Origin: Patescibacteria group bacterium
Lineage (GTDB): Bacteria; Patescibacteriota; Patescibacteriia; UBA10025; JBIOWE01
Direction of reading: 5' to 3'
Assembly (NCBI GenBank): GCA_044868145.1
Contig: JBIOWE010000006.1
Coordinates: 284,537-348,536, forward strand
Length of the DNA stretch: 64,000 nt
Shown here: one piece after another, positions 2,012-38,166 of the stretch
Numbering within the stretch: the first letter of the stretch is position 1
Layout of the letters: the number at the start of each line of letters is the position of its first letter
Program-made: the position numbers and the translations under genes
Notes under the pieces: model-generated
Seen by the model: only the letters and a program-made list of their open reading frames with translations
The model's database searches: none
Told to the model about the DNA's origin: nothing

Positions 2012-2012
2012 A

Positions 2013-6162: not shown

Positions 6163-6166
6163 TAAT

Positions 6167-6709
6167 ATGGTGCAACCTATCATTCGAAAATCACATGGAT
6201 CGGGAAAATTTAATAAAAAAGACTTTTCTCATGTAGGAGAGAATGTAATTATCGAACCCGGCGTTTTCGTATTTCATCCAGAGAATATAGTAATTGGCGA
6301 CCATGTTTATATTGGACATTATACAATTCTCAAGGGTTACTATAAAGGTAAAATGGTTATCGGTTCTGGAACATGGATAGGCCAACAATGTTTTTTCCAT
6401 AGCGCGGGTGATATAGAAATTGGCGAGAATGTCGGCATAGGACCAGGAGTAAAAATTCTTACTTCAACCCATTCAATCAACGAACCTGACAAACCGATTA
6501 TACACGCCCAAGAAATGCTTTATAAAAAAGTAATCATTAAACCAGATGCTGACATTGGTGTAAACGCAATTATTTTACCCGGCGTAACAATTGGACGTGC
6601 TGCGCAAATAGGTGCAGGAGCCGTAGTAACCAAAGACGTCCCAGATTATGAAATTTGGGCTGGCGTACCAGCTAAATTCTTAGGCTCAAGGAAGCAAACG
6701 TCGTTATGA
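6167..6709 (+). CDS. hexapeptide-repeat (LbH) acetyltransferase
   Basis: Tandem hexapeptide motifs (IGENVGIGPGVKI, IGVNAIILPGVTIGRAAQIGAGAVV). Confidence 0.7.
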   Translation: MVQPIIRKSHGSGKFNKKDFSHVGENVIIEPGVFVFHPENIVIGDHVYIGHYTILKGYYKGKMVIGSGTWIGQQCFFHSAGDIEIGENVGIGPGVKILTSTHSINEPDKPIIHAQEMLYKKVIIKPDADIGVNAIILPGVTIGRAAQIGAGAVVTKDVPDYEIWAGVPAKFLGSRKQTSL

Positions 6710-7824
6710 TGTGCGTTCGATGCATCTACCATGATAAGATCCCGGGAATTTCTTTTGATTCCGAACGTATTTGCAACTATTGTCGAACTTCTGAACAAAT
6801 GGTAAAAGAGTATCCTGATGGGAAAGAAGGAGAAAAAATATTTTCTCAAATTGTTGAGCAGGTCAAAAAAGATGGTAAAAATCGAAAATACGATTGCGTA
6901 ATTGGAGTAAGCGGAGGCTGCGATTCTTCATATTTGGTTTACATGGCTAAAAAGTTTGGCTTGCGTCCCCTGGCAGCACATTTTGATAATACCTGGAATT
7001 CTTCCATATCTGCTGACAATATAAAAAAAGTTCTTAAAAAACTTAATGTAGATTTATTTACCCATGTGGTGGACAACGAGGAATTCAATGATATGGCTCG
7101 TGCTTTCTTAGAGGCGTCAGTTCCTGAAATTGATGCTCTTTCAGATGTTGCACTTGCCACTGTTCTTTACATGGCTGCCGCGAAGTATAAAGTAAAATAT
7201 ATCTTCGACGGTCATAATTTCCGCACGGAAGGAATGACACCCCTCGGTTGGTTCTACTTCGATGGCAAATACGTTTCTGATATATATAAAAAATTTGGTA
7301 AAGGCAAAATAGTCTCCTACCCAAATTTGTGGTTATCAAAATGGTTGAAGTGGCTGATTATAGACCGGCCCAAAAGAATACGTCCTCTCTACTATTTAGA
7401 TTATAATAAAGAAGAAGTGAAAAAATTTCTTACTAGGGAATTTGGCTGGCAATGGTATGGCGGGCACCACATGGAAAATAAGTATACTATCTTTTGCGAT
7501 AACTATGTAATGCCAAAAAAGTTCAATATAGATTTACGATATGTTGAATTTTCAGCGATGATACGTTCCGGTCAGATGACGAAGGAGCAGGCTCTTAATG
7601 AAATTCAGATACCCCCTGAATGCAAAGATGAGTTAATTCAAGAAGTAAAAAAGCGTTTAGGATATTCTGACGAGGAATTCAATCGTCTCATGGATAAACC
7701 ATTGAAATCTGCAAAAGATTATAAAACGTATCATAATATTTTTAGGGCGATGAAGCCAATTTTTTGGTTTATGCTGCGAGCGGACTTAATTCCAAAAAGT
7801 TTCTACATTAAGTACACCAATTAG
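6706..7824 (+). CDS. N-acetyl sugar amidotransferase, a PP-loop ATPase (WbpG/LPS biosynthesis protein family)
   Basis: N-terminal CxxC...CxxC zinc ribbon. PP-loop SGGxDS (VIGVSGGCDSSY). Immediately followed by hisH-like and hisF-like genes, as in the P. aeruginosa wbpG-hisH2-hisF2 arrangement. Confidence 0.75.
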   Translation: MMCVRCIYHDKIPGISFDSERICNYCRTSEQMVKEYPDGKEGEKIFSQIVEQVKKDGKNRKYDCVIGVSGGCDSSYLVYMAKKFGLRPLAAHFDNTWNSSISADNIKKVLKKLNVDLFTHVVDNEEFNDMARAFLEASVPEIDALSDVALATVLYMAAAKYKVKYIFDGHNFRTEGMTPLGWFYFDGKYVSDIYKKFGKGKIVSYPNLWLSKWLKWLIIDRPKRIRPLYYLDYNKEEVKKFLTREFGWQWYGGHHMENKYTIFCDNYVMPKKFNIDLRYVEFSAMIRSGQMTKEQALNEIQIPPECKDELIQEVKKRLGYSDEEFNRLMDKPLKSAKDYKTYHNIFRAMKPIFWFMLRADLIPKSFYIKYTN

Positions 7825-7887
7825 AACTGTTTTAACAGATAAAATCATAATCAGAATTTATTTTTTATTTTCTATTAGAAAAAGCGC

Positions 7888-8502
7888 ATGATTGTTATTG
7901 TCGATTACCACATGGGTAATGTTGGATCGATAAAAAATATGATAAAAAAACTGGGCAGTGACTCGGTTATATCATCAGATCCAACAACAATTAGAAACGC
8001 TGGCAAGCTAATTCTTCCTGGAGTTGGAGCGTTCGATAATGGCATGGAAAATATCAATAAACTAAATCTTCTCGACATATTAAATGAAAAAGTTTTACAA
8101 AAAAGAACGCCGATCTTAGGGATTTGCTTAGGAATGGAGTTAATAACCAAATCAAGTGAAGAAGGAATACGAGAAGGGTTAGGTTGGATCGACGCAAGCA
8201 CAGTGAAATTTAAGTTTTTGGACAATGTCGAGAATCTAAAGGTACCGCATATGGGATGGAACACAATACAGATAAAGAAACAAAGCCGTATTCTTCTCAA
8301 TATGCGCGAAAATCCAAGGTTTTACTTTGTCCACTCGTATCATCCCGTTTGTAACAACGTAAAAGATGTCGTAGCAGAAACGACATATGGATATCCGTTT
8401 ACTTCTATTTTCGCACATAAAAATATTGTTGGCGTACAATTTCACCCAGAAAAAAGTCATAAATATGGCATGAAGCTTCTTCAGAATTTTATTGAAATGT
8501 AA
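7888..8502 (+). CDS. HisH-like class I glutamine amidotransferase (imidazole glycerol phosphate synthase glutaminase-subunit homolog)
   Basis: MIVIVDYHMGNVGSI start. GICLGMELI catalytic Cys motif. C-terminal VQFHPEKS (His/Glu of the triad). Confidence 0.8.
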   Translation: MIVIVDYHMGNVGSIKNMIKKLGSDSVISSDPTTIRNAGKLILPGVGAFDNGMENINKLNLLDILNEKVLQKRTPILGICLGMELITKSSEEGIREGLGWIDASTVKFKFLDNVENLKVPHMGWNTIQIKKQSRILLNMRENPRFYFVHSYHPVCNNVKDVVAETTYGYPFTSIFAHKNIVGVQFHPEKSHKYGMKLLQNFIEM

Positions 8503-8504
8503 AT

Positions 8505-9266
8505 ATGCTCTCTGCGCGCGTTATTCCTTGTCTTCTAAATAAAGATTCGTCCTTAGTAAAAACGATTAAATTTAATGAAGTTAACTACATAGGTGATCCT
8601 GTAAATACGATCCAGATTTTTAATAATTTTGAGGTTGATGAATTGGTCCTGCTAGATATTGCTGCAACAAATGCACAAAGACCCCCAAAACTTGAATTAA
8701 TACGTAACGTTGCCAATGAGTGTTTTATGCCGCTCGCTTATGGTGGGGGCATCCGTGATATTGAAACAATCAGCAAGATTTTCGGTCTCGGTTCAGAAAA
8801 AGCAATCATTTGTTCTTATGCGGCTGAAAATCCAGAATTTGTCCGACTTGCTTCAAGGAAATTCGGCAATCAAAGTATTATTGTTGCCATTGATGTAAAG
8901 AAAAACTTTTTCGGAAAATATGAAGTCTTTACACACTCAGGAAAGAAAAATACAAAAAAAGACCCTATAGAATTTGCACGATTAATGCAGGAAATGGGTG
9001 CGGGGGAAATTTTTCTTAATTCTATTGACTTAGACGGCACCATGGCGGGTTATGACTTAGGTCTTGTGAACGACATGACCCACGCTATTACTATCCCATT
9101 AATTGCTTGTGGCGGTGCGGGTTCTCACGAAGATCTAAAAAAAGCAATAAAAGCGGGTGCATCGGCAGCAGCTGCTGGCAGTCTTTTTGTTTATCAAGGT
9201 AAAGACCTTGGCGTCTTGATTAATTTCCCCTCGCAAAAAGAGTTAGAAGAAATTCGTTCGATATGA
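8505..9266 (+). CDS. HisF-like cyclase subunit homolog (TIM-barrel partner of the WbpG-type amidotransferase)
   Basis: ARVIPCLLNKD...GDPVN...VDELVLLDI...GGGIR...ACGGAG motifs characteristic of HisF/HisA barrels. Confidence 0.8.
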   Translation: MLSARVIPCLLNKDSSLVKTIKFNEVNYIGDPVNTIQIFNNFEVDELVLLDIAATNAQRPPKLELIRNVANECFMPLAYGGGIRDIETISKIFGLGSEKAIICSYAAENPEFVRLASRKFGNQSIIVAIDVKKNFFGKYEVFTHSGKKNTKKDPIEFARLMQEMGAGEIFLNSIDLDGTMAGYDLGLVNDMTHAITIPLIACGGAGSHEDLKKAIKAGASAAAAGSLFVYQGKDLGVLINFPSQKELEEIRSI

Positions 9267-10270
9267 AGATCCTTCACGCACCATTTAACATAGCTGGCCA
9301 GGCATCAATTATTTCCAGAGCTCAAAGGAAATTAGGAATTCAGAGCGACGTAATGGTTTTTAGTCAAACCTATCTTGAGTACGAAAACGACATTATTTTA
9401 AACATTAATACGAAGCCTTTAGCCTCAAAGTTTGGGGTCGTGTTAAAAAACTTTCTCTATTGCATAAGGACGTATGACATTTTCCATTTTCACTTCGGTT
9501 CAAGCCTTTTGCCGTTTCTCATAGATATGCATATTCTTAAATTGCTTGGGAAACCAATGCTCATGCACTATTGGGGGTCGGACGTTATACAAATTGACAT
9601 TGCAAAGAAGTACACACTGCTCAGCGAGGAAGAATTGAAAGAAATCTTCAAAAGTATTCATAGCAGAAGGCGTAGAAAAAAAATTCGTAGAATCGAAAGC
9701 CTGGCTAACATGACAATAGTTGGCGATTACTCTCTTCAGCGATATTCCCCAAAGAGTATTGTCATCCGCCAGGCAATTGATTTGTCTGCATTACAATTCG
9801 TAGGAGTCCCGACAAAAGAAAATAATATCAACGTTGTTCATGCTCCAACCAACCGTAAAATAAAAGGTACGCATCATGTTATAAGCGTAATAGATGATCT
9901 CAAGAGACAAGGTTATAATATGAATTTACAAATAGTGGAAAACATGCCCAATAAAGAAGCGTTAGAGATATATAAAAAGGCCGACATCGTGATTGATGAC
10001 GTGCTGCAAGGTCCTTACGGTATTTTTGCGATTGAAAGCATGGCTTTGGGAAAACCAGTGCTCGGTTATGTAAGAAACACCGAGCAATATCCAGGATTAC
10101 CAATAATGAACACCAGCCCGAGCTCACTCAAAAACAATATCTTATCTCTTTTTAACAACCGCCCATTACGTATAACCCTCGGCAAGCAAGGTAGAGCCTA
10201 CGTCGAACGTCATCATGATAGCTTAAAGATCGCCCAGCAACTAATAGATATCTACAAAACACTATCGTAA
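9263..10270 (+). CDS. glycosyltransferase (GT-B fold, GT1/GT4-like)
   Basis: C-terminal region (FAIESMALGKPVLGY) resembles the GT-B nucleotide-sugar-binding domain. Sits in the glycan cluster. 4-nt overlap upstream. Confidence 0.5.
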   Translation: MKILHAPFNIAGQASIISRAQRKLGIQSDVMVFSQTYLEYENDIILNINTKPLASKFGVVLKNFLYCIRTYDIFHFHFGSSLLPFLIDMHILKLLGKPMLMHYWGSDVIQIDIAKKYTLLSEEELKEIFKSIHSRRRRKKIRRIESLANMTIVGDYSLQRYSPKSIVIRQAIDLSALQFVGVPTKENNINVVHAPTNRKIKGTHHVISVIDDLKRQGYNMNLQIVENMPNKEALEIYKKADIVIDDVLQGPYGIFAIESMALGKPVLGYVRNTEQYPGLPIMNTSPSSLKNNILSLFNNRPLRITLGKQGRAYVERHHDSLKIAQQLIDIYKTLS

Positions 10271-14045: not shown

Positions 14046-14315
14046 TCACGAGAAGTTAATTACTTTTCGAATCAAATAATATAACATATACCAGAAAAGA
14101 ATGTTTAATGGGACGCCGATGATAAGTGTAAATAGCACTAATAAATCAAGGGGCATTTGCAAAGAGAAAGAAATCATTTCTACGACTTTAATCGGAAAAA
14201 GTATAACCCAACTTACCCATGGAGTCTTTTGAAATATTGCCTGGTTGAAACCAATGAAAATTCCGACTACAAGAACCATCAGTAGTAATACTTTCTTTTG
14301 ATCACTGAACTTCAT
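14046..14315 (-). CDS. small membrane protein (hypothetical)
   Basis: 89 aa with three hydrophobic helices. Overlaps the stop of the upstream gene. Confidence 0.35.
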   Translation of the reverse strand: MKFSDQKKVLLLMVLVVGIFIGFNQAIFQKTPWVSWVILFPIKVVEMISFSLQMPLDLLVLFTLIIGVPLNILFWYMLYYLIRKVINFS

Positions 14316-15813
14316 AGACTATAGTTCCCTCGTTTTCGTAAACTTTTTCGAAGTATGGATTGATAAAGGCAAAATTTGAAAATCCCTCATACCCGAGTAC
14401 CTTGAAATTTTGTTCCTCAAAAATAGCTCCCCAAAAAACGTATCGAATATCGTACTTCTTAGACAAACGCGACCGCACGCCGGGGTCTTTATTTGTGAAG
14501 ATACCGACTTTTTCTCCTTCCGGAAACTCGATAAGATTTTCAGTTACAATCGGTAAGAAGTAGCCAAATTGCTGCGCGCCGGTGAAGACGGTACCAGGAG
14601 GTATGTTTTCTCGAATCCACTTATATGCTGCGATATCGCTTTCCGGAATCTGTGTTGGGTGAAGACCGGGGCAACTGCGCACATAACATTTCTTATAATC
14701 TTGCTGTTGAGCCAGTACGAAGGGAAGCAACAGAATAACTAAGAATGCAATGGCCACAAACCGTACCCTACTTTTTCTAATCTGATCCATCAAAAAACAC
14801 ACGCCATACCCGACGATGAACATTATTGGTGCGACGAGAAAAGGCGCAAACCTGTTCGGAAAAAAGGGAGACCCGATCAGGTTTGACTGAGTGAGAAAAT
14901 ATGTTGCAAGAAACCAAAGGCCTAGAACGGTATTTTTTTTAAGAAGAACAAAATAAACGCCTACAAGAAAAAACAAGATGAGCAACGGGTTTCCGAGTGT
15001 AGTATTGAACATATCGGAGAAAGAAAATCCATAATTATCGATGGAAAAACGAGGAAGTATATTCAAACTGCTCGGGGTGAACAAAAAGTAGAAAAGCGTC
15101 AGACCGAGGAATACGCTTGATAACACTATGACTTTTTTACGCATATTTCTTTTTCGAATGTAAAAAAGAAATATATATGTAAGCGTTATCAATAGGGCAA
15201 GGAAAAAGGTCAATACGTGAACAAAAAAAATGATGGCGAGAACCGAATACGCGTACATTAGGTTTGTCCTTCTTTCGGTCTCCTGATGTTTTACGAGAAA
15301 ATAGAGTAACAGAGGCAGGAAAAACATCCCTAAAAGTTCCGCAACGTGACCAAGCCAATACATGCTACCGAAATAGAACGAAAAGAAAAGTAGAACAGTT
15401 ATTAGAACGCTACCGATAAAATTCTTGTAAACATAATAGCTTAATAGAAAGTAGCTTAAGACAGCTAATGCTAATAGGCTCACGAAAAATATTTTACCGA
15501 ATTCGAGACTACCAATGAGGGATGGATCTATGAGATACAAGACGGCAAGCACAATATGGACAGGAAATTCGGTCGAAATAAATGAACCATAGAGGGTTCG
15601 TGTTGACGATGGATTGTATGGTAACTGTGCATCCAACGCGCCATGGGTTGCTATGAGTTTTGACTTCATCAGTGTAATTGCTGTATCACAACACGGGGCG
15701 TACGCATGGTCGCCGCTATAATAAAGAAAAACTAAGGCACTTAAACCGACAACACAGCTTGCCAGAATAACGACTCGCATGAATTTATATCGTGAAGCAG
15801 GTAAAGGTGTCAT
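14302..15813 (-). CDS. large polytopic membrane protein with a C-terminal extracytoplasmic domain. Candidate GT-C-type glycosyltransferase or glycan polymerase
   Basis: About 11 TM helices followed by a ~150-aa soluble C-terminus. Embedded among GT and methyltransferase genes. Confidence 0.5.
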   Translation of the reverse strand: MTPLPASRYKFMRVVILASCVVGLSALVFLYYSGDHAYAPCCDTAITLMKSKLIATHGALDAQLPYNPSSTRTLYGSFISTEFPVHIVLAVLYLIDPSLIGSLEFGKIFFVSLLALAVLSYFLLSYYVYKNFIGSVLITVLLFFSFYFGSMYWLGHVAELLGMFFLPLLLYFLVKHQETERRTNLMYAYSVLAIIFFVHVLTFFLALLITLTYIFLFYIRKRNMRKKVIVLSSVFLGLTLFYFLFTPSSLNILPRFSIDNYGFSFSDMFNTTLGNPLLILFFLVGVYFVLLKKNTVLGLWFLATYFLTQSNLIGSPFFPNRFAPFLVAPIMFIVGYGVCFLMDQIRKSRVRFVAIAFLVILLLPFVLAQQQDYKKCYVRSCPGLHPTQIPESDIAAYKWIRENIPPGTVFTGAQQFGYFLPIVTENLIEFPEGEKVGIFTNKDPGVRSRLSKKYDIRYVFWGAIFEEQNFKVLGYEGFSNFAFINPYFEKVYENEGTIVYEVQ

Positions 15814-16778
15814 GTTCTTTGGTTTTTCCTTAAATACATAAGGTTGTTACGAGAAAACACCCGGTTTACTGCCTCAAAAGAAATTACTTTCCGTTCTTGT
15901 ATTGCCTTCCTTTTCACAAGAAATAATTTCATTTTTTTTAAGCTCTCGAAACGTGCGCTAAGGAGAACGAATACGACACCCTTGAATGTGTAATAGGTGA
16001 AAGAAATGACTTGATAAAAAATAATCGATGGGAGGTTCCGTAATAATAAACCTCCGGAGTAATTTTTTATAATGAACCAAAAATAGTTTCTCTGATTATT
16101 AAATAAGGCGAAGTGCGATCCTCTTTTCTTCGTGGAGATAGCATGGTGGTGCATAACAGGTGCTTCATAAAAACTCACATTATGCCAACCACGCAGTACG
16201 GCGCGGAATCCCAAATCAAGGTCTTCGGAGTAAAATTTGAAATCGCGATCAAAGAGTTCTCCGGATACCTGTAGGAGGTCGCGAAGCATTGCACAAGAAT
16301 ACACTGCGGCGCCTCCGGACGGGCAAAGAATCTGCTCCTGCACACTTTTTGCATTAAAACCAGCACCAGAGCGATGTAACGTAATGCCAAGCGTGTCAAT
16401 CCTCGAGTCGTCAAGCCGAATCATTTTCAAAGCAATCATCCCAGTTCTTTCCGATACCTTACGTAAGAATGACAGAAGCTTTACAAAAAAATCTGCTGTA
16501 ATGAGTGTATCGTTGTTCAACAGTAATACAAACTCATACCTATTAATTAAGCGTTCGAGACCTTTGTTGTAGCCTTCCGCGAAACCAAAATTCTTTTCCA
16601 GCGGAATGACAAAAACTGGCGGAAACGAGCCCTTTACCATCTCGATCGAATTATCCGTTGACCCATTGTCAATAACATACACATCGCTGGCCGGATTCGT
16701 CTGATAAATACTGGATAGACATTCGCGAAGAAGACCCATACCATTCCAGTTGAGAATAGCAACGGCTAATGTCTTCAT
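15810..16778 (-). CDS. glycosyltransferase family 2
   Basis: LNWNGMGLLRECL, VIDNGSTD and NFGFAEGYN motifs of GT-A/GT2. Confidence 0.75.
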   Translation of the reverse strand: MKTLAVAILNWNGMGLLRECLSSIYQTNPASDVYVIDNGSTDNSIEMVKGSFPPVFVIPLEKNFGFAEGYNKGLERLINRYEFVLLLNNDTLITADFFVKLLSFLRKVSERTGMIALKMIRLDDSRIDTLGITLHRSGAGFNAKSVQEQILCPSGGAAVYSCAMLRDLLQVSGELFDRDFKFYSEDLDLGFRAVLRGWHNVSFYEAPVMHHHAISTKKRGSHFALFNNQRNYFWFIIKNYSGGLLLRNLPSIIFYQVISFTYYTFKGVVFVLLSARFESLKKMKLFLVKRKAIQERKVISFEAVNRVFSRNNLMYLRKNQRT

Positions 16779-17554
16779 ACAGACGTTCCTTTCCCTCGAA
16801 AAAAATTAGTTTCATAAGATCTCGAATCTAGAATGGAATGGAAGACTCCATGTTTATTTGTCCGCTCTACTAAGAAAAAGATTGTTACAGAAAGCCCGCG
16901 AAATATCCGACTCAGCGCCTTACTCAAAATAGGCGGAAAAGGATACAAATTAGATCCTCGTGTTTCTAAAACTCGAAAGTAATTATCGGCCTGAATAAAT
17001 CTTTTGAATCCAGGGATGGTGTATCCGCGCACATGTGCACTTAGTATTTCGAGGGAGGTTGGCTGCTCTCCAAATAACAAGAGTAGTCGATTATGGAACG
17101 CTGCGAGATTTGGCATTCCTGCGATGAAAATTCCACCAGACATCAACGCCCTTGAAATCTCCGAACAAATCCAAAAGATTTCCTTCGTGTGTTCCAAAAT
17201 TTGATTCGCAATAACAATGTCAAAAAACATATCCTCAACCGGAATGCGGTCCCGTTCTAAATCGAGAGTGTACACCGTAATTCCTTTTTCTTTTGATTCT
17301 TGAATCGAGCGAGGCACGTATTCAATGCCATACAATTCCACCGTAATAGCAGCGTTCATCGAACGGATCCCTTCTTTGATATTCGCCAAATCGTATCCTT
17401 TTCCACACCCAATATCTAAAATACGAATTGTTTTGCCCGGACGTTGAATAGCGTATGCCTTTGCCCATTTGGCAATAATTTTTCTTCCATAGTTTAAATA
17501 TGTCCACTTTCCTACTAATTTTTCCATTGGCTGTATGACCGTGCGTAATGACAT
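16775..17554 (-). CDS. class I SAM-dependent methyltransferase
   Basis: Motif I ILDIGCGKGYDL. Motif post-I/II IVIANQILEH. Confidence 0.7.
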   Translation of the reverse strand: MSLRTVIQPMEKLVGKWTYLNYGRKIIAKWAKAYAIQRPGKTIRILDIGCGKGYDLANIKEGIRSMNAAITVELYGIEYVPRSIQESKEKGITVYTLDLERDRIPVEDMFFDIVIANQILEHTKEIFWICSEISRALMSGGIFIAGMPNLAAFHNRLLLLFGEQPTSLEILSAHVRGYTIPGFKRFIQADNYFRVLETRGSNLYPFPPILSKALSRIFRGLSVTIFFLVERTNKHGVFHSILDSRSYETNFFRGKGTSV

Positions 17555-17557: not shown

Positions 17558-18670
17558 TTATCCAAGTACTTTCTTCACTAATCGTAAAATGCTTTCCGGC
17601 TGCACCCCTCTCATACACTCAAGTTCCGATAAACCTGCGGGAAATTTGCCCTCATCGTCAGTAAGTGCTCCGGGCAAATCTGGCTTCCATACGTACGTGT
17701 GTCGTAACCCAATTGGTGCCTTTCGCTCTGGATGTACGGGTCCGAAAATAGAGATTACTGGGATGCCCGCAGCGGCTGCCATGTGCATTGGTCCGGAATC
17801 GTGAGTAACAAACACACGACAGTGTTTCATAAGTGCTATAGATTGTTTGATTGATGCTTTTCCAGCCACGTTTTTAACAAAGTTTTCATCTGTTGATTCA
17901 ATGATTCCTTTATTGATTTTTTTGTCTCCAAGTCCCCCGAACATTAGAATCCTAATCTTAGGAAAGCTTTTTAGAAGTAGGCGTGTCAACTCGATAAAGT
18001 GATCTGTCGGCCAGCGACGAATGAGCATTGATTGGCCAGGATTAACCGCACCGCCTGCCATCAATCCGACCACCGCTGCGTTTTGCAAGTTGTGTTCACG
18101 TACAAAATCATTGGCAAAGTGTTTATCCGATTCCGCAAGAAACACTTTCATTCCTTCATACGCTGCCGGCTTACCCAGGGCTCGTAAAAGATCAAGGCTG
18201 TATTCAATTTCATGTCTTATCGGTCCGTAGATAACATTCAAATTATTAGCAAACCCCTCCCCTTTCCTATCGAACCCTATCCTGAACCGAATCCCGCACA
18301 AAAATCCAAACAATGATGCAAAATAATGACGATCAAGAATGAAACCAATATCTATCTTTTCTCTTCTTACCTCCTTAGCCAAGTTCCAAATTTTTAAGTA
18401 GTGGCGATCCCATATAATTTGATCGTCGAATGGAACGAGCGAATCAATGGCTGGGTTTCCCTCAAGCACTGCCTTTGACCAATTGCCTACCACATAGATA
18501 ATGCGTGCGCTTGGATATGCCTTTCGAACATTTTCAAGCAGTGGCGTTGACATCAACACATCACCAATCGCACCAATCTTAATGATGGCAATCGTCTTTG
18601 GATTACTCGGTATGTTTTTGTTTTTGAACAAAAAAGTTAGTTTACCAATTGGTATAACAAGCAATTTCAT
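17558..18670 (-). CDS. glycosyltransferase family 9 (ADP-heptose-dependent heptosyltransferase, RfaF/WaaC-like)
   Basis: IAIIKIGAIGDVLMSTP N-terminal motif. C-terminal HDSGPMHMAAAAGIPVISIFGP typical of GT9. Confidence 0.75.
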   Translation of the reverse strand: MKLLVIPIGKLTFLFKNKNIPSNPKTIAIIKIGAIGDVLMSTPLLENVRKAYPSARIIYVVGNWSKAVLEGNPAIDSLVPFDDQIIWDRHYLKIWNLAKEVRREKIDIGFILDRHYFASLFGFLCGIRFRIGFDRKGEGFANNLNVIYGPIRHEIEYSLDLLRALGKPAAYEGMKVFLAESDKHFANDFVREHNLQNAAVVGLMAGGAVNPGQSMLIRRWPTDHFIELTRLLLKSFPKIRILMFGGLGDKKINKGIIESTDENFVKNVAGKASIKQSIALMKHCRVFVTHDSGPMHMAAAAGIPVISIFGPVHPERKAPIGLRHTYVWKPDLPGALTDDEGKFPAGLSELECMRGVQPESILRLVKKVLG

Positions 18671-19152
18671 ATTCGCGAGCGATAGATTTTCAATATTCTA
18701 TTGATAATATCAGTTGTCGAAAGTAATCTTTTTTGTTTTTTGATAAGAACAAGCTTTCCACCGTATTTTCGAACAGTTGGGGCTTCGACACAGTTTTTCC
18801 CATACTCACTGCTATTTACATGGATATTTGGCCGGACAGTCTCAAGAAAACGTGTTGGATTCGTTTCGGAAAAAACGTACAAATAATCGATGCATCGAAG
18901 CGACGCAAGTAATTTTACTCGCGATGCTTGAGGAATAATAGGTCGATCCTTGCCTTTATACTTTTTAATTGAACTATCACTATTTACTCCAACGATAAGC
19001 ACATCACCGAGTTTTTTGGCACGTTCCAACATGAACACGTGCCCATCATGTAAGATGTCAAAGCTCCCGTTTGTCGTTACGATACGCCTGCGTAATCGCT
19101 TCAAGTCCCTCACTCGTCTCTTTAATTGCTGCTTTGTTAAAATTTTAGCCAT
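18667..19152 (-). CDS. D-glycero-beta-D-manno-heptose 1-phosphate adenylyltransferase (RfaE/HldE domain II, stand-alone)
   Basis: Cytidylyltransferase-like TNGSFDILHDGHVFML motif. 161 aa. Confidence 0.8.
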   Translation of the reverse strand: MAKILTKQQLKRRVRDLKRLRRRIVTTNGSFDILHDGHVFMLERAKKLGDVLIVGVNSDSSIKKYKGKDRPIIPQASRVKLLASLRCIDYLYVFSETNPTRFLETVRPNIHVNSSEYGKNCVEAPTVRKYGGKLVLIKKQKRLLSTTDIINRILKIYRSRI

Positions 19153-19678
19153 GCTGTTTTATCCAAAGACTCGCATCGTAAAGATTTGTTGCTCGATAAT
19201 CTGGGCTCACCTCGTATTGATTGTCCTTTCCCGCTTTACCAGTTTTGACAAGAATCGTCCTGCACCCAAGTAGTGAACCTGCGCGTATATCTTCCGTTTT
19301 ATCACCTATCACAAATGAGGCTTTCGTATCAATCACAAATTCACGTATTGCTTTTTTATAATTTTTTAGTTTCGGCTTTCGACATGTACAATGGGCAGAA
19401 GGCTTATGGGGGCACATGTATTCGGCGTGGATTCGTACACCCTTCGATTTCAAGAAACTTAAAAAATGATTCGTAAACTGCCTATAGTCTCGCAAGGTGT
19501 AATACCCTCGACCGATACCCGATTGATTACTTACGATGATCAACAAATACTTAAAGTCTTGCAATAGTCTCAAGCCACGAACGGCGTTCGGGAGGAACCG
19601 GAGATTCTGTTTCCTATACACATATCCAAAATCAACGTTGATGGTGCCATCACGGTCCATGAAGACTGCACGCCTCAT
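19145..19678 (-). CDS. gmhB: D,D-heptose 1,7-bisphosphate phosphatase (HAD superfamily)
   Basis: FMDRDGTIN HAD motif I. Zinc-binding CPHKPSAHCTCRKP insertion typical of GmhB. Confidence 0.8.
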   Translation of the reverse strand: MRRAVFMDRDGTINVDFGYVYRKQNLRFLPNAVRGLRLLQDFKYLLIIVSNQSGIGRGYYTLRDYRQFTNHFLSFLKSKGVRIHAEYMCPHKPSAHCTCRKPKLKNYKKAIREFVIDTKASFVIGDKTEDIRAGSLLGCRTILVKTGKAGKDNQYEVSPDYRATNLYDASLWIKQHG

Positions 19679-20673
19679 CGACGTATAAACTCAGCCAGTT
19701 CTTTTGTTGAGACCGTTGCCGTCCCTACTTTTTCGATACTTAATTTTGCCGCGATAGAGGCTAAATATGAAACTTCGTAGGGAGTAAGATCGTTGATACC
19801 CATGGCAATAATGGCCGCTACAGTGTCACCGGCACCCGAGACGTCAACCACCTTTTCTGCAAATGATGGTAAATGATACATTCTCTTTTGCTCGTCATAT
19901 AAATCCATTCCTTGGGCGCCACGTGTTACTAAGACATTCCGTATCTTTAAATTCTTTTTTAATTTCCGAATGAGTTGAGGAATTTTTGTATCTGGTACGG
20001 TTTCAAAGAAGCCAAACATGCGCGAAAGTTCAATGTCGTTCGGCGTAATAAAATCAACTCCCAAATACAATTCCGTATGCTCTGGTTTCGGATCAACAAC
20101 AATGGGCACTCGATACGTTTTTTCGACTTCCATAAGCGTTGTCATGACGCGACTGGTAATAACACCTTTGTTATAATCGGAGACCAAAATCGAATCCACC
20201 TTGGGGGCGACCCTTTTGATATACTGGATAAGGTTGTTCTCGATTGTCTTGTTAATTGTGATGGAAGTTTCTTCATCAACTCTGACAATTTGCTGACCCT
20301 GAGAAAGAACACGCATTTTAAGCGTCGTTGGCCTGCTGTGATCAAAAATGACGCCTTCAAGCGGCATCTTACTCTTTTTTAGCGTTTCCAAAAAACTCCT
20401 TCCGAAATCGTCATGCTTATTATGATCGCCAATAACGCCTGCCAAAATGGTAGAGCCCCCTAAAGCTTTAATATTCTCGGCACTGTTTGCCGCGCCACCG
20501 AGTTTGTAATACTTCCGTTGAGCGCGAACAATGATCACGGGAGCTTCTTGCGATACGGAGCGGGGCGGCCCCTCAATGTATAAATCGAGCATTAAATCAC
20601 CAACAACAAGAACTTTTTTCTTTCGGAAAAGTTGCAGTGAGCGAAGCAAGTGGTTTTTGAACGACCTCTGCAT
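19675..20673 (-). CDS. D-beta-D-heptose 7-phosphate kinase (RfaE/HldE domain I, PfkB carbohydrate kinase family)
   Basis: VLVVGDLMLDLY N-terminus. GAGDT anion-hole motif (DVSGAGDTVAA). Confidence 0.8.
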   Translation of the reverse strand: MQRSFKNHLLRSLQLFRKKKVLVVGDLMLDLYIEGPPRSVSQEAPVIIVRAQRKYYKLGGAANSAENIKALGGSTILAGVIGDHNKHDDFGRSFLETLKKSKMPLEGVIFDHSRPTTLKMRVLSQGQQIVRVDEETSITINKTIENNLIQYIKRVAPKVDSILVSDYNKGVITSRVMTTLMEVEKTYRVPIVVDPKPEHTELYLGVDFITPNDIELSRMFGFFETVPDTKIPQLIRKLKKNLKIRNVLVTRGAQGMDLYDEQKRMYHLPSFAEKVVDVSGAGDTVAAIIAMGINDLTPYEVSYLASIAAKLSIEKVGTATVSTKELAEFIRR

Positions 20674-20676
20674 GGT

Positions 20677-21273
20677 TTACTTCTTGTTAAATAGTTTTTG
20701 CTCCGCTAGCTCGCAGATGATGTGCAGAAGCGTAATGTGACCTTCTTGGATCCTCGGCGTGTCCGTGTGAGGGACTACCAAGGCAATGTCCAGATATTCA
20801 AGAATTTTCTTGCTCTTCAGTGATACAAGTCCAATTGTATGTAATTTTTTTTCTCGAGCCGTAATAAGCGCGCGAGCGATGTTTGTCGAATGACCATTTT
20901 TATCCAATGAAATGTCGCTTGTCGTCAGAACAAATAATATATCGCCCGGCTGGCCGAGAGCGTGGATTTGCTTATCAAACACAAAATCAAATCCGGAGTC
21001 GTTACCGATTGAAGTTAGTGCCGAACTATCCGTTGTCAACGCTATCGCCGGCAACGGTGGTCGCTCAATTTTATATCGATTCGTAAACTCGGCGGCAAAA
21101 TGCTGCGCGTCCGCAGCAGAGCCACCATTCCCACAAATAAGTATCTTATGCCCGGAACGGAGGCAATCCATAACGACATCAATCGCTCGTTCAATATCAG
21201 ACGTCATCGTTACGGCCATTTTAGTTTTCACCTTCGCACTCTCTTTCAGAAATTGTTCAATTCGTTCCTTCAT
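20677..21273 (-). CDS. gmhA: phosphoheptose isomerase (SIS domain)
   Basis: ILICGNGGSAADAQHFAAEF SIS motif. 198 aa. Confidence 0.85.
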   Translation of the reverse strand: MKERIEQFLKESAKVKTKMAVTMTSDIERAIDVVMDCLRSGHKILICGNGGSAADAQHFAAEFTNRYKIERPPLPAIALTTDSSALTSIGNDSGFDFVFDKQIHALGQPGDILFVLTTSDISLDKNGHSTNIARALITAREKKLHTIGLVSLKSKKILEYLDIALVVPHTDTPRIQEGHITLLHIICELAEQKLFNKK

Positions 21274-21282
21274 ATCAAAACG

Positions 21283-22389
21283 TTAATCATTGATCATCGT
21301 TTGAGCAACGGATAAAACGTCTGCAACAGTTATCTTTTCCATGGACTGCTCACGATCAATGTCTGGTATGTCACCTTTATGTACGTTAATCACTGGATTT
21401 GTACCTTTGTAAATATATCGGTTGCGTGGGCCATATGGCGCAAATCTCACTGGCGTGTTCGGACCAAATAAACCAAGCGTTGGTACACCTTGGGCGGCTG
21501 CGATATGAATTGGACCGCTATCATTTCCTATAAAAAGGTGAAATTTTGTCATAAGGTAAAAAAGTTCCTTTAATGTAAATTTTCCTGCAGCATTTATTAC
21601 ATTCGGGAGGTCTGCTGCAATCTTTTCGGATACCTGCTTGTCGCTCTGGGCTCCAACAACAATGAAAGTTGTGGGAAAGTCTTCTTGAAATCGTTCTATA
21701 AACGCCCGATAATTGGCCCAATTCCAGCGTCTTCCTTGTGCCGATCCGCCTGAACCAGGGGCAAAACCAATGAGTACCTTATCAATTAAATGATGTTTGC
21801 GTAATAAGTCATCAACCCCTCCCCTTTCGTGTCGTGAGAACCCAAGTGGTATCAGTCGCGAATAATCAGTATGGATTCCGATGGAGCGAGCTAGGTCAAG
21901 ATACGTTTGGACGACGTGTTGCTTATCATTGTAATGTACCTTCACGTCGTAAAGGATTGAGCGAACGCCGTGGCTAAACCCAATCGATCTTTTAGAAAAA
22001 AGAAATGTCAAAATTGCAGAAAGTCGAAAAAATGGTTCGAGGTCAAAGGCAAGGTCGTAATGATGAAAAAAAAGAAAAAAGGATGGGAGCCGGAAAAAGG
22101 TTAAAATGTGTACCGAAGTAATTATCGCATTATCGGTGTACACATCGCTATTTTTCTTTCTCGTGAGTACATCAATCCGAACAAAATCTCCGTATCTCTT
22201 TCGTATTGCATCAATTGTAGGAAGGGTCAGTACACTTTCGCCAATAGCCCATAGTTTGACAAAGAGTATCTTTCTCGGTTCAACCGCTTTGGTAGAATTG
22301 CGAACGAACTTGAGGGGATAAAACAAAAGGCAGAGTAGCCCCCCGATATACTTATCAATGAACTTTTGCAACGCGTTGACACTCATCAA
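21283..22389 (-). CDS. glycosyltransferase family 9 (second heptosyltransferase-like protein)
   Basis: C-terminal GNDSGPIHIAAAQGVPTLGLFGP GT9 signature. Confidence 0.7.
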   Translation of the reverse strand: MMSVNALQKFIDKYIGGLLCLLFYPLKFVRNSTKAVEPRKILFVKLWAIGESVLTLPTIDAIRKRYGDFVRIDVLTRKKNSDVYTDNAIITSVHILTFFRLPSFFLFFHHYDLAFDLEPFFRLSAILTFLFSKRSIGFSHGVRSILYDVKVHYNDKQHVVQTYLDLARSIGIHTDYSRLIPLGFSRHERGGVDDLLRKHHLIDKVLIGFAPGSGGSAQGRRWNWANYRAFIERFQEDFPTTFIVVGAQSDKQVSEKIAADLPNVINAAGKFTLKELFYLMTKFHLFIGNDSGPIHIAAAQGVPTLGLFGPNTPVRFAPYGPRNRYIYKGTNPVINVHKGDIPDIDREQSMEKITVADVLSVAQTMIND

Positions 22390-22739
22390 TGATCAGTCCT
22401 TTCATACTTTTTTTCTTTCTCGTTTACTTTGTCAAGTGCGATACGCCTCACAAGGCTGGTTATCTCCCGTTCGATAAATTCCAACTTAATGTAAATCCGA
22501 AACACCCCGTAAAACAAAACGATAATGGAGAAGTAAACCAGAGCGTCCACGCCTCGCCCCACGCCTACTGTGTTGGCTATTAGATCTGTAAATGCTGGCC
22601 ACCAGGTAAAAAAAACAATAATGGCCCAAACGAGGAACCACGCCGTTAAAGCCAATGGACTGATTGCCTTATTACGGTACTGCAAATATGCGCGTGATGC
22701 CGCAAAAAGCGCAAACAATGTTACAAGGATTTTAACCAT
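22386..22739 (-). CDS. DUF2304-like small membrane protein, as commonly found paired with GT2 genes
   Basis: 117 aa with two TM helices plus a charged C-terminal tail. Sits between the GT2 and GT9 genes. Confidence 0.45.
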   Translation of the reverse strand: MVKILVTLFALFAASRAYLQYRNKAISPLALTAWFLVWAIIVFFTWWPAFTDLIANTVGVGRGVDALVYFSIIVLFYGVFRIYIKLEFIEREITSLVRRIALDKVNEKEKKYERTDH

Positions 22740-23422
22740 TAACGAAGCAGTTTACCTACCAAATACTTAAAAAGAATTTTACCAAAAGAAAGCGAGCTCT
22801 GACCTTTTGCTAACGAATACTCGGAGTAATGAATGGAAACAGGAACTTCTTGGTACGCTAATTTGTGGCGGTGAATCTCGTCGAAGATTTCAGAGGCGTG
22901 CGCCATACGATCTTGATTTAAACGGATAGTTTGAGCCGCACGTCCGGATAATGCCCGTAAACCGTTATGGGTATCCGTAATGTTTACGCCAGAAGCTATC
23001 TTAGTAAAAAAAACTGCAGCGCGCAAAACGATTTTGCGCACAGCGGGCATTGCTATTGAAGGTTTATTGAGAAATCGCGAGCCGAGTACAACTTCAACAC
23101 GCCCTTCTTGAATCGGTTTAACAAGATGTTGAATATCTTCAACAGCATGCTGTCCGTCCGCATCAAATGTTACGATAATGTCCGCACCGTTATTTAACGC
23201 ATATGTGATGCCCGTTTTCAGAGACGCGCCCTGTCCCCGATTGATAATATGCCGTAAAACAACTACGCCGGTATTTTCTGCGATATCGGCGGTATCGTCA
23301 TCTGAACCGTCATCAATAACAACAATGTTCCTGTACCGTGGACGTATTTGGTTGATAACCTCTTTTATTTTTTTTGACTCATTCAGGGCAGGTATAACAA
23401 CGTAGATATTCATTGAAATCAA
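22739..23422 (-). CDS. glycosyltransferase family 2 (Dpm1/polyprenyl-phosphate glycosyltransferase-like)
   Basis: VVIPALNE, VIDDGSDDDT and DADGQH motifs. Confidence 0.75.
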   Translation of the reverse strand: MISMNIYVVIPALNESKKIKEVINQIRPRYRNIVVIDDGSDDDTADIAENTGVVVLRHIINRGQGASLKTGITYALNNGADIIVTFDADGQHAVEDIQHLVKPIQEGRVEVVLGSRFLNKPSIAMPAVRKIVLRAAVFFTKIASGVNITDTHNGLRALSGRAAQTIRLNQDRMAHASEIFDEIHRHKLAYQEVPVSIHYSEYSLAKGQSSLSFGKILFKYLVGKLLR

Positions 23423-27985: not shown

Positions 27986-30121
27986 TTAACGGGCAACTAC
28001 TCCGACAAACACGCCGCCACGAAACGCCAAAGTGTAGGCGAAGAATTGTCCAAGGACCTTGCCGGTTAGGTTAAAAAGACGAACTTGTGGTCCGCCACCA
28101 TACCCCGCACCCGCAACAATATCGTCTGTACCATCATTATTCACATCCCCAGCGGCAACATGAACGCCACCGCGAAAGGTTGATGCATACGCGAAGAATT
28201 GCCCAAGGACCGTTCCCGACTTCGTGAATATGCGGACGTGCGGGCCTCCGTTGGAAAAAGGACCTGTGACGATTTCATCCACCCCGTCACCGTTCACATC
28301 ACCGGAAGCCACGGAGACGCCACCCCGAAAGGTCGCGGCGTAGGCAAGAAATGGCACATACTTCCGCGTGCCAAACCGGTCAAAAATGCGTACCTCGGGA
28401 ACTGTGCCAACGCCTGCGCCAGCGATAATTTCATCTACCCCATCACCATTAACATCGCCGGCAGCGACGAAAACGCCGCCACGCTGCGCCTGATCAAAGG
28501 CAAAGAATCCCGGGGTGAACTTCGGCTTGCCATAACGGTCAAACACGCGCACCTGGGGTCCGCCGCCGTTGCCCGGACCGGTGATTATTTCATCCATCCC
28601 GTCGCCATCAAGATCTCCGACTGCAACATGCACACCGTTGCGAAATGTCGAGGCGTAAGCGAAAAACCCCGGCGTGAAGACTGCCGATCCGTTGGTTCGG
28701 AACACACGTACCTGAGGGCCGCCGCCAGGCCCTACGCCGGTAATAAGTTCCGAGGTACCGTCGCCGTTTACGTCGCCAGACGCTACTTCAACGCCTCCCG
28801 GAAACGTGGTTGCGTACGCGAAAAATTCAGATGCTACATTTCCTGATGCGTTGAGGAGGCGAACGTGGGGGCTGCCACCCGGGCCTGCACCCGTTACAAT
28901 GAGGTCGGACAGCACAATCGCTTGCTCGCTGTTAATGCTTTTTGCCAGGTTCACGCGTCCAGCGCCCAACTGACCCGCGTACGATGGATTACCCGCATCC
29001 AAATCATCTGACCCCTGAAACAGAACATCAGACACTTCAGAAAAAAATAGAAGGGGGTTTTTCGCCATGATGAGTGACAGGGCGCCGGCAATAACAGGGC
29101 TTGCGACCGACGTTCCGTACCATCCAGACTGATAGTAATCCGTAAACCCCTGGCCAGGAGAATAAAAAACCGTGCTGGTCATGTTAATGCCAGGGGCTGA
29201 AATATCGATACAGGGTCCATAGTTAGAAAAGCTTGTTTTGTGATCCAGCTCATCCGTGGCCGCAACACCGATAACATTGTCATTACACACCGGATATTGG
29301 GGTGTCGTGGCAAGGTTCACATTGTTATTACCGGCGGCGGCAACGACCAGGGCACCATGCTGCGCGGCATTGGTGATCGCCTCTTGAAGTACCTGACTAT
29401 TCGTTGATCCCACGAGGCTGAGATTGATAATATCAGCGCCCTTTGCAACAGCGTAGTTCACTCCTTCAGCAATAGTCAGAGTATCCCCCAGCCCGCTCCC
29501 GTCAAGCACGCGAACGGACATAACCCTACTGGTCCATACAACACCGCTTATGCCTGCCGCATTATTGCCTACTGCCGCCGCTATGCCAGCGACGACAGTG
29601 CCGTGACTCATGCCCGTGTCAGTCCACGCACCATCAAATTTCGGATTTGGATCAGCACTCCCTTGCACAAAATCCCAGCCATGAACGTCATCAATAAACC
29701 CATTCAGGTCATCATCAATACCGTTGCCAGGTATTTCTCCTGTGTTCATCCAAATATTCCCGGCCAGGTCCGGATGGTCAAGATCAACGCCGGAGTCAAG
29801 AACCGCGATAACGACGTCTTGTGATCCCGTTGTAACGTCCCAGGCAGTTGGCGCTTGAAGGGGTGAAAAATACCATTGGCTTGCATACAGCGAATCATCA
29901 GGCACTGTGGCCATCGAAAAACTCGCCAACGGTTCACGGATGGTGGCTCCATCATGTTCCATGATAATGGTATTGCCGTCCATACGGTAACTCACCCGAT
30001 CAAGATGATGAGGGCGACGGGAGACGTTATAACCAACGCTTGCCTCAACTGGATAAAACAAAAAGCACAGTACAAAGCACAGCGCAGTTAACGATCGTAT
30101 GGATGAGCAGCGCGCTGCCAC
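27986..30121 (-). CDS. secreted subtilisin-like serine protease (peptidase S8) fused to a C-terminal FG-GAP repeat beta-propeller
   Basis: N-terminal signal peptide. S8 triad motifs VLDSGVD (Asp), HGTVVAGI (His), GTSVASPVIAG (Ser). The C-terminal ~310 aa hold six ~44-aa repeats (GDVNGDGxDEIxxGxGxGGGPQVRxF...FFAY), with a possible degenerate seventh. GTG start 1 nt after the upstream stop. Confidence 0.85.
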   Translation of the reverse strand: MAARCSSIRSLTALCFVLCFLFYPVEASVGYNVSRRPHHLDRVSYRMDGNTIIMEHDGATIREPLASFSMATVPDDSLYASQWYFSPLQAPTAWDVTTGSQDVVIAVLDSGVDLDHPDLAGNIWMNTGEIPGNGIDDDLNGFIDDVHGWDFVQGSADPNPKFDGAWTDTGMSHGTVVAGIAAAVGNNAAGISGVVWTSRVMSVRVLDGSGLGDTLTIAEGVNYAVAKGADIINLSLVGSTNSQVLQEAITNAAQHGALVVAAAGNNNVNLATTPQYPVCNDNVIGVAATDELDHKTSFSNYGPCIDISAPGINMTSTVFYSPGQGFTDYYQSGWYGTSVASPVIAGALSLIMAKNPLLFFSEVSDVLFQGSDDLDAGNPSYAGQLGAGRVNLAKSINSEQAIVLSDLIVTGAGPGGSPHVRLLNASGNVASEFFAYATTFPGGVEVASGDVNGDGTSELITGVGPGGGPQVRVFRTNGSAVFTPGFFAYASTFRNGVHVAVGDLDGDGMDEIITGPGNGGGPQVRVFDRYGKPKFTPGFFAFDQAQRGGVFVAAGDVNGDGVDEIIAGAGVGTVPEVRIFDRFGTRKYVPFLAYAATFRGGVSVASGDVNGDGVDEIVTGPFSNGGPHVRIFTKSGTVLGQFFAYASTFRGGVHVAAGDVNNDGTDDIVAGAGYGGGPQVRLFNLTGKVLGQFFAYTLAFRGGVFVGVVAR
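27990..28920 (-). repeat. about six tandem ~132-nt degenerate coding repeats (FG-GAP blades) inside the subtilase gene
   Basis: Periodic protein repeat. The plus-strand antisense ORF 28199..28846 is an artifact of this repeat. Confidence 0.6.
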
Positions 30122-36944: not shown

Positions 36945-37070
36945 TGTGACCCTCCTTTCGATGAAAGGAACTATTTACCTTAGATTCAATAGATGGTTAT
37001 AGAATCTCAGGAAAATGGGAGAGGCGTGTCATTGCATATCGCAACATCGCGCCTCTCCAAATCTGATAGC

Positions 37071-37340: not shown

Positions 37341-37377
37341 AAAGCCTCCAATGTTCAATGTGCAAAGTTTCTCCCTC

Positions 37378-37419: not shown

Positions 37420-37455
37420 GCGGGTTTTGGAACCTACCCGCTGGAGGTAAAAGAG

Positions 37456-37896: not shown

Positions 37897-37936
37897 TGAT
37901 CCTCCTCGTTAAATTTAATGAACTTTTTTGATTCTT

Positions 37937-38143: not shown

Positions 38144-38166
38144 TTTGATTGTAAAGTACAAACTAC

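Follow-up and report, generated by a model that had tools for sequence, protein, structure and literature searches.

The stretch of DNA analysed here (hereafter the window) comprises 64,000 nucleotides of a Patescibacteria group bacterium (GCA_044868145.1, contig JBIOWE010000006.1) and carries, on its minus strand, genes for the synthesis and transfer of ADP-heptose. The initial annotation had described gmhA, a kinase, gmhB and an adenylyltransferase as contiguous and flanked by two family 9 glycosyltransferases (GT9s); a check of the open reading frames (ORFs) found all six at exactly the coordinates given, 17558-22389, and their families match. Inspection of stop and start codons places these six heptose genes as the core of a set of 12, running from 23422 to 14046 on the minus strand. 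The 12 genes, with the family matches on which their assignments rest, are listed below; GT2 is glycosyltransferase family 2 and GT-C a membrane glycosyltransferase fold.

22739..23422, minus strand: predicted GT2 polyprenyl-phosphate sugar synthase, GacI/PpgS/AglJ-like, operon gene 1 (PF00535, E 9e-24)
22386..22739, minus strand: DUF2304 small membrane protein, GacJ/Rv3632-like putative GT2 activator (PF10066, E 8e-22)
21283..22389, minus strand: GT9-A, putative heptosyltransferase, 368 aa (PF01075, E 7e-33)
20677..21273, minus strand: GmhA, sedoheptulose-7-phosphate isomerase (SIS_2, E 2e-25)
19675..20673, minus strand: stand-alone HldA-type PfkB kinase (PfkB, E 2e-35; TIGR02198 rfaE_dom_I, E 1.5e-91)
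19145..19678, minus strand: GmhB, heptose-1,7-bisphosphate 7-phosphatase (HAD-IIIA; NF006506, E 1.5e-45)
18667..19152, minus strand: stand-alone HldC-type nucleotidyltransferase (RfaE domain II), predicted ADP-forming (CTP_transf_like; TIGR02199 rfaE_dom_II, E 1.3e-46)
17558..18670, minus strand: GT9-B, putative heptosyltransferase, WaaF-like fold, 370 aa (PF01075, E 1.5e-27)
16775..17554, minus strand: S-adenosylmethionine-dependent methyltransferase (Methyltransf_31/11/12, E 4e-12)
15810..16778, minus strand: GT2 glycosyltransferase, second in the operon (PF00535, E 8e-14; 4-nt overlap with each neighbour)
14302..15813, minus strand: GT-C-fold membrane glycosyltransferase, 503 aa, multi-pass, of a rare family without a Pfam model and distantly related to DUF6541
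14046..14315, minus strand: small membrane protein, 89 aa, GT-C companion (overlaps the GT-C stop by 14 nt)

Every junction among the 12 genes is an overlap of 1-14 nt or a spacer of 3-9 nt; within the six-gene core the overlaps are 4-8 nt and the spacers 3-9 nt. We therefore read the 12 genes as a translationally coupled operon, larger than the six-gene unit first noted. The 122-nt gap upstream of the first gene holds three promoter-like hexamer pairs—a count not above chance—and a promoter and terminator scan as a whole gave signal at chance level.

The same genes recur in other genomes. In GCA_040960375.1, a metagenome-assembled genome (MAG) of the candidate phyla radiation (CPR; locus L083), the order is that of the window: GtrA, GT2, two short-chain dehydrogenases/reductases (SDRs), GT2, DUF2304, GT9, GmhA, kinase, GmhB, nucleotidyltransferase, GT9, GT-C and small protein. 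Here the GT-C gene directly follows GT9-B, and the methyltransferase at 16775..17554 is an insertion peculiar to the window operon. Another CPR MAG (locus L086) has GT2, DUF2304, GT4, GmhA, kinase, GmhB, nucleotidyltransferase and GT9, while a Kerfeldbacteria locus (L081) has GT2, DUF2304, GT4, GmhA, kinase, a nucleotidyltransferase-GmhB fusion, a true HldD, GT9, GT-C and the small protein. The archaeon Methanococcus maripaludis has GmhA, nucleotidyltransferase, kinase, GmhB, GT9, GT9, HldD, GT4, GT9, methyltransferase and Wzx: it shares with the window the split gmhA, nucleotidyltransferase, kinase and gmhB, next to A- and B-type GT9s whose relative order is the same, as well as a methyltransferase, a GT4 and a Wzx. 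M. maripaludis has no lipopolysaccharide (LPS). Its cluster differs in having HldD and a third GT9, in the order of its pathway genes, and in lacking a GT2/DUF2304 pair or a homologous GT-C within 8 kb. The most compact relative, in Haliovirga abyssi (AP027059.1, L088 4888-9044), consists of GT2, DUF2304, an A-type GT9 with a Gly-Glu motif, a TPR protein and a B-type GT9. The GT2 and DUF2304 pair is kept in L081, L083, L086 and Haliovirga, and weak homologs of the 89-aa protein lie directly after GT-C in L081 and L083 (E 3e-7 and 2e-6). The Haliovirga module has no adjacent heptose-pathway or LPS-core genes, and an 1842-aa protein without a family match lies downstream of it.

The four pathway enzymes all fall in the expected families: GmhA, the HldA-type kinase, GmhB and the HldC-type nucleotidyltransferase. 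GmhA is best matched by NF010546 (212 bits) and TIGR00441 (179 bits), both below cut-off; it is 47% identical to its counterpart in the M. maripaludis cluster and has syntenic orthologs in four other heptose clusters. The kinase reaches 306.8 bits against TIGR02198 (cut-off 345), with ribokinase as the runner-up family at only 75 bits; among solved structures it aligns best with Burkholderia HldA (4e84, E 8e-46), GAGD motif included. For GmhB the beta-type model NF006506 (154.9 bits; cut-off 178) outscores the alpha-type NF050049 (118.7 bits). Its best match of known structure is E. coli GmhB (3l8e, E 2e-26), and the alignment takes in the DxD nucleophile and the Cys-x-His...Cys-x-Cys zinc motif. 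The nucleotidyltransferase scores 158 bits against TIGR02199 (cut-off 181.5) and is closest among solved proteins to Burkholderia HldC (5x9q, E 6e-27), with HxGH (HDGH) and STT motifs present. All six core proteins pass Pfam gathering scores and fall below the curated cut-offs of the NCBIfam equivalog models, and are therefore best regarded as divergent orthologs whose family assignments are backed by synteny in the relatives.

The kinase and transferase families also indicate which heptose route is encoded. The GDP-D-glycero-alpha-D-manno-heptose route of the Aneurinibacillus S-layer glycan and the Campylobacter capsule uses the GHMP-type kinase HddA and the NTP_transferase-type guanylyltransferase HddC. 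That route shares GmhA, GmhB and a non-LPS surface glycan with the window; however, the window kinase is a PfkB protein and the transferase has the cytidylyltransferase fold (CTP_transf_like), and neither GHMP kinases nor NTP_transferase-family proteins were found among the window ORFs scanned. The GDP-alpha pathway was thus rejected, and the predicted families assign the locus to the beta/ADP route. The separation of kinase and adenylyltransferase into two genes had been called archaeal or Gram-positive-like. The archaeal half of that description holds, since the M. maripaludis cluster is split in the same way; the Gram-positive half is not supported, because the best solved homologs of the split enzymes, Burkholderia HldA and HldC, are beta-proteobacterial. 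The characterised Gram-positive S-layer heptose route has a different kinase and a GDP-forming transferase. Monodomain architecture is likewise shared with the split HldA/HldC of Burkholderia (and Neisseria), and gene fusion varies among the relatives, with one nucleotidyltransferase-GmhB fusion and one different nucleotidyltransferase fusion. The first is an uninterrupted 328-aa ORF in Candidatus Kerfeldbacteria (JACQKH010000047.1, L081 8038-9024) that joins a heptose nucleotidyltransferase to GmhB, precedes the true HldD and falls outside the three nucleotidyltransferase types of PMC11573728. The second (GCA_053533175.1, L089 6431-7903) is 490 aa long and combines a heptose-type nucleotidyltransferase domain with a C-terminal domain of ~330 aa without a family match; its gene lies beside that of a GT9-B homolog, in divergent orientation.

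The pathway had also been called complete, which is true of four enzymes and not of the epimerase: family models and BLAST/tblastn searches with E. coli HldD found no HldD ortholog in the 64-kb window. Both neighbouring SDRs were considered for the role and rejected: the best SDR of the window has 27% identity to E. coli HldD and 118 bits against a cut-off of 274.6, with GalE models fitting better. True HldD orthologs do occur in other clusters, with 43% identity to the E. coli enzyme in Kerfeldbacteria L081 (E 8e-76) and 37% in M. maripaludis. Because the window has no HldD, the heptose probably stays in the D,D form.

Which nucleotide the transferase uses bears on the donor for the GT9s. The motif (F/L)xxGRSTT, termed STTR5 for the Arg at position 5, marks heptose nucleotidyltransferases that are promiscuous towards nucleoside triphosphates (NTPs) (PMC11573728, PMC11461863), a class attributed to Tang et al. 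2024. It was not found in the window enzyme, which reads QKRLLSTT and has Leu before STT where STTR5 has Arg; the corresponding residues are LLSTS in L083, LLSTT in L086, GRSTT in the Kerfeldbacteria fusion and DRSTT in Burkholderia HldC, an NTP-promiscuous enzyme (PMC11573728) whose product goes to LPS. The absence of the motif favours ATP specificity for the window enzyme, short of proof. An enzyme making CDP- or UDP-heptose instead of, or besides, ADP-heptose, with GT9s using that donor, seems improbable to us. Monodomain heptose nucleotidyltransferases can be NTP-promiscuous across kingdoms and do not strictly require STTR5 (PMC11461863), and the fused Kerfeldbacteria ortholog has GRSTT; however, the window enzyme has Leu-Leu where Gly-Arg would precede STT, and the residues that hold ADP-heptose are conserved in the GT9s (the WaaC Lys192 equivalent as Arg, and D-S-G-x-x-H).

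Both GT9s belong clearly to the family, with PF01075 scores of 114 bits (GT9-A) and 97 bits (GT9-B) against a gathering cut-off of 22 and with the GT-B nucleotide-sugar motif D-[ST]-G-x-x-H. By BLAST they are distinct paralog lineages that share 26% identity, and each of them has separate orthologs. For GT9-A, identity is 40% with the upstream GT9 of L083 and 36% with both M. maripaludis GT9_1 (E 6e-70) and the upstream GT9 of Haliovirga. GT9-B shares 39% of its residues with M. maripaludis GT9_2 (E 1.5e-80), and its homologs reach 49-59% in Kerfeldbacteria and other CPR MAGs and ~40% in Woesearchaeota, Nanoarchaeota, Methanocaldococcus, M. maripaludis and Haliovirga; nine of the 11 organism-named matches in its homolog list are archaeal. 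In clade B the positions of WaaC Asp13, Lys192 and Asp261 are occupied by conserved Gly-Asp, Arg-Arg-Trp and Asp-Ser-Gly-Pro-x-His, whereas clade A uniformly has Gly-Glu, not Gly-Asp, at the Asp13 site (GT9-A: GES, RRW, DSGPIH; GT9-B: GD, RRW, DSGPMH). Both clades carry hydrophobic N-terminal extensions, which the E. coli enzymes lack.

How these proteins relate to the Waa enzymes bears on the destination of the heptose. An LPS inner-core reading would make the host a diderm and the GT9s WaaC/WaaF equivalents acting on Kdo2-lipid A (Kdo, 3-deoxy-D-manno-octulosonic acid), with the lipid A and Kdo genes lying elsewhere. It can draw on the heptosyltransferase II model TIGR02195, the best NCBIfam model of GT9-B (123 bits against a cut-off of 134.6), on E. 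coli WaaF as the second-best solved homolog of GT9-B (E 3e-21, after Veillonella GT9 3tov at E 2e-24; WaaC reaches only E 1e-6, and GT9-A matches solved structures more weakly), and on the many database homologs automatically annotated as "LPS heptosyltransferase II". Against this, the E. coli enzymes WaaC, WaaF, WaaQ and WaaU share only 20-27% of residues with GT9-A and GT9-B (25% between GT9-B and WaaF), compared with 36-39% for the archaeal orthologs, and the same pair stands in the heptose cluster of M. maripaludis, an archaeon unable to make LPS. All six NCBIfam models for WaaC, WaaF and WaaQ score below cut-off. In a neighbour-joining tree the A clade (window, L083, M. maripaludis and one Woesearchaeota sequence) and the CPR B clade each have a bootstrap of 72, and both stand apart from the Waa enzymes, with no supported grouping with the characterised proteins and no support at the deep nodes; the outgroup GT9s were distant (at most 36%) diderm-phylum sequences among the matches listed by a profile search of genome contigs with the GT9-B alignment.

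The host and the window point the same way. The best named relatives of the window's LepA are Patescibacteria group bacterium, Candidatus Kerfeldbacteria, Falkowbacteria, Komeilibacteria and Buchananbacteria, with a top identity of only 65%, on which grounds we place the host in a poorly sampled lineage of the CPR/Patescibacteria, a group proposed to have no outer membrane (PMC12102498). None of the families Lpx, Kds, WaaA and WaaL turned up when essentially all large ORFs of the 64-kb window were scanned—in agreement with the initial annotation, which had noted the lack of lpx and kds genes—and tblastn with E. coli WaaA and WaaL gave no match there. The operon context is one of GacI/GacJ-like proteins and a GT-C, with no waa genes. 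Taken together, we consider the LPS inner-core reading very unlikely. A non-LPS surface glycan in a monoderm-type host, as first proposed, is well supported, because the host is a CPR bacterium, LPS genes are lacking in the window, and the GT9s lie apart from WaaC and WaaF and have archaeal orthologs; the cluster moreover recurs in CPR MAGs and in M. maripaludis. Compared with the classical ADP-heptose/LPS system, the locus shares the isomerase, PfkB kinase, HAD-IIIA phosphatase and cytidylyltransferase-fold families and the GT9 nucleotide-sugar motifs, and differs in its separate kinase and transferase genes, its lack of HldD, its CPR host, its non-clustering GT9s and the absence of lipid A and Kdo genes nearby.

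The remaining genes of the operon suggest how such a glycan might be assembled. The first gene and its neighbour form a GacI/GacJ (PpgS/Rv3632)-type pair by family membership (PF00535 plus PF10066, with a 1-nt overlap), and the corresponding activity is predicted. The first-gene GT2 is best matched by NF058614, the model for the polyprenyl-phospho-GalNAc synthase PpgS (207 bits, below its cut-off of 370), reaches 99 bits against a model for the archaeal protein AglJ, also matches dolichyl-phosphate hexose transferase models and is 60% identical to the syntenic L083 gene. Both the role of DUF2304 and a precedent for GT2, DUF2304 and GT-C acting together come from GacI/GacJ/GacL and PpgS/Rv3632/Rv3779, in which the GT-C takes its sugar from a polyprenyl-phosphate monosaccharide (10.1101/180810). 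The streptococcal Group A carbohydrate locus (GacI/GacJ/GacK/GacL) and the mycobacterial PpgS/Rv3632/Rv3779 system share with the window a GT2 followed by DUF2304, and a GT-C and flippase candidate in the locus; they differ in lacking a heptose pathway or GT9, and the window GT-C comes from a different, rare family.

This GT-C protein is a conserved partner of GT9-B, and a word-indexed search found five homologous proteins. Its sequence had no match in the PDB, and relaxed Pfam searches gave sub-threshold hints alone; its membership in the GT-C superfamily rests on a multi-helix GT-C fold and a conserved acidic residue in the first extracytoplasmic loop. A fold search with an AlphaFold2 model returned the oligosaccharyltransferases (OSTs) AglB, STT3B and PglB as best matches, with AftA, PMT and ArnT-type enzymes nearly equal. 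A conserved F/Y-W-D/G in the C-terminal domain was considered as a WWDYG-like OST motif and rejected, as it is not at the expected position.

These matches open an archaeal-style alternative, in which the GacI/AglJ-like GT2 and DUF2304 would prime a polyprenyl-monophosphate lipid, GT9-A and GT9-B would extend it with heptoses, and an OST-like GT-C would transfer the product en bloc to surface proteins. The genes concerned are translationally coupled in one operon, within which the first-gene GT2 is the only lipid-sugar-forming enzyme; it also draws support from the AglJ and dolichyl-phosphate hexose transferase matches, from the OSTs at the top of the GT-C fold search and from the small Haliovirga module (GT2-DUF2304-GT9A-TPR-GT9B). 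Yet the characterised trios use the polyprenyl-phosphate monosaccharide as GT-C donor, not as primer, the other GT-C enzymes fit the model nearly as well as the OSTs, no WWDYG-type motif was identified in the GT-C, and M. maripaludis has no GT2/DUF2304 within 8 kb of its cluster. We regard this alternative as possible but doubtful.

The reading that we prefer, at a probability of roughly 70%, is that the locus is the heptose module of a non-LPS, cell-surface glycan assembly operon in a CPR bacterium. By homology, GmhA would isomerise sedoheptulose-7-phosphate, the stand-alone HldA-type PfkB kinase would phosphorylate O-1 to give the beta-1,7-bisphosphate, and GmhB would remove the 7-phosphate, so that the end product of the four enzymes from sedoheptulose-7-phosphate would be ADP-D,D-heptose, the predicted donor. 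At the cytoplasmic face of the membrane GT9-A and GT9-B would add heptose to an acceptor predicted to be a polyprenyl-phosphate- or pyrophosphate-linked glycan rather than Kdo2-lipid A. We infer that the lipid-linked, heptose-containing product is flipped, because the same operon has a GacI/GacJ-type synthase, a methyltransferase, a GT2 and a GT-C; Wzx and GtrA are encoded nearby. Outside the membrane, the co-operonic GT-C would complete the product or transfer the glycan to a surface protein or wall polymer, the proposed final destination of the heptose; the target may be a capsule, an S-layer glycan or another polymer. What the analysis shows directly is the identity of the genes, the structure of the operon, its synteny and the separation of the GT9s from WaaC and WaaF in the tree, whereas donor, acceptor and destination are predictions. 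Gram-positive actinomycetes use ADP-heptose as a natural-product precursor (PMC11461863), and the heptose could in principle feed a soluble secondary metabolite of the septacidin or hygromycin type, or a signalling molecule. To this we attach almost no weight: the pathway is surrounded by two membrane-associated GT9s, a polyprenyl-phosphate GT2, a GT-C, Wzx and GtrA, natural-product enzymes are not present, and CPR genomes are highly reduced.

Several points weigh against the preferred reading. Since the NCBIfam equivalog scores all lie below cut-off, the substrate specificities are predictions, and because CAZy family GT9 includes non-heptose transferases, a different donor is conceivable for one of the pair. 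The GT-C model is of moderate confidence, with a predicted local distance difference test (pLDDT) score of 65 from a five-sequence alignment. The negatives on hldD and on lipid A and Kdo genes cover the 64-kb window alone, the latter scope being a point that the LPS reading can claim, and the deep nodes of the GT9 tree are without support. Finally, Haliovirga belongs to a diderm phylum and has the same GT9 pair, which is thus not confined to cells without an outer membrane.

The operon lies in a wider glycan region. Family scans confirmed the neighbours first described (DUF4012, Wzx, GT4s and polyprenyl-phosphate-type GT2s). In all, the surroundings comprise Wzx, GT4s and methyltransferases, an amino-sugar block, an NDP-sugar (nucleoside diphosphate-sugar) dehydrogenase, two SDRs, a GT2 plus GtrA, and a group of DUF4012, three GT4s and a phosphoglycosyl transferase. 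Housekeeping genes in the window encode LepA, MurJ, RecJ, pyruvate:ferredoxin oxidoreductase, acetyl-CoA synthetase and glycolytic enzymes. The G+C content is 39.4% over positions 1-24000 (33-45% per gene) and 42.6% in the six core genes, while positions 24001-64000 reach 48.5%. Lower G+C of this kind is typical of glycan loci that vary or are exchanged horizontally, and suggests that the region is such an island.

Other features of the window are recorded here. The amino-sugar block at 57-10270 contains two DegT aminotransferases, a GFO_IDH_MocA oxidoreductase, three hexapeptide acyltransferases, an SDR, a glucosamine-6-P-isomerase-like protein and a PP-loop ATPase, after which come HisH-like and HisF-like genes; this content points to a diacetamido or acetamidino sugar as the product. 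At 27986-30121 lies a subtilase (S8) that contains several FG-GAP repeats and whose G+C (54%) is the highest of the window. Next to it come a PDZ protein and a gene whose L083 counterpart has DUF5656, and this block is kept upstream of the L083 glycan operon. Between MurJ and DUF4012, the ~3.2 kb at 36400-39630 hold short ORFs alone (at most 146 aa), with no tRNA and no Rfam match at the gathering threshold. A bacterial class A RNase P RNA at 47345-47749 (minus strand; 205 bits, E 5e-65) covers the initial ~96 codons of the longest ORF (45902-47632) of a Bac_transf phosphoglycosyl transferase, whose true start must hence be an internal codon. Two tandem, overlapping paralogs of cofactor-independent phosphoglycerate mutase (57437-59026 and 59011-60582) adjoin enolase and phosphoglycerate kinase.

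The presence of ADP-heptose genes in CPR bacteria and archaea is already reported. Paceibacteria, a CPR class, were noted to have the pathway (PMC9166423), M. maripaludis KA1 and JJ are reported to carry ADP-heptose glycan clusters (PMC12667266), and the M. maripaludis cluster is traced to Tang et al. 2024 by way of PMC11573728. The latter work covers NDP-heptose enzymes across kingdoms, including the monodomain nucleotidyltransferase class and M. maripaludis, and calls the archaeal role of heptose "elusive" (PMC11573728). A literature search found no description of an A/B pair of GT9s common to CPR bacteria, archaea and a fusobacterium, of its linkage to GacI/GacJ-type proteins, or of the rare GT-C partner; the conserved GT9-A/GT9-B pair with these partners thus appears to be undescribed. 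A bolder proposal is that the operon is a mobile, cross-domain "heptoglycan" module, with a fixed GT9 A/B pair, its A clade marked by Gly-Glu and an N-terminal membrane helix, common to CPR bacteria, DPANN and methanogenic archaea and Fusobacteriota; the pair would heptosylate a polyprenyl-monophosphate-linked sugar made by a GacI/GacJ-type synthase, and an undescribed OST-like GT-C family would transfer the product to surface proteins. We think this proposal unlikely; if true, it would mean an archaeal-style (AglJ to AglB-like) route of heptose glycosylation in a bacterium without LPS.

Textbooks treat heptose as part of LPS chemistry. The locus described here provides a defined, conserved genetic context for asking what heptose does in cells without LPS, a question left open by PMC11573728, and M. 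maripaludis strains with the orthologous GT9 pair offer a cultivable, tractable proxy. On this reading, the label "LPS heptosyltransferase II" that automatic annotation attaches to genes of CPR bacteria and archaea is misleading. As ADP-heptose is an ALPK1 agonist in vertebrates, producers without LPS would widen its potential sources. The finding is also relevant to the glycobiology of the CPR envelope, which is almost unknown—it is the CPR surface that mediates the episymbiotic lifestyle.

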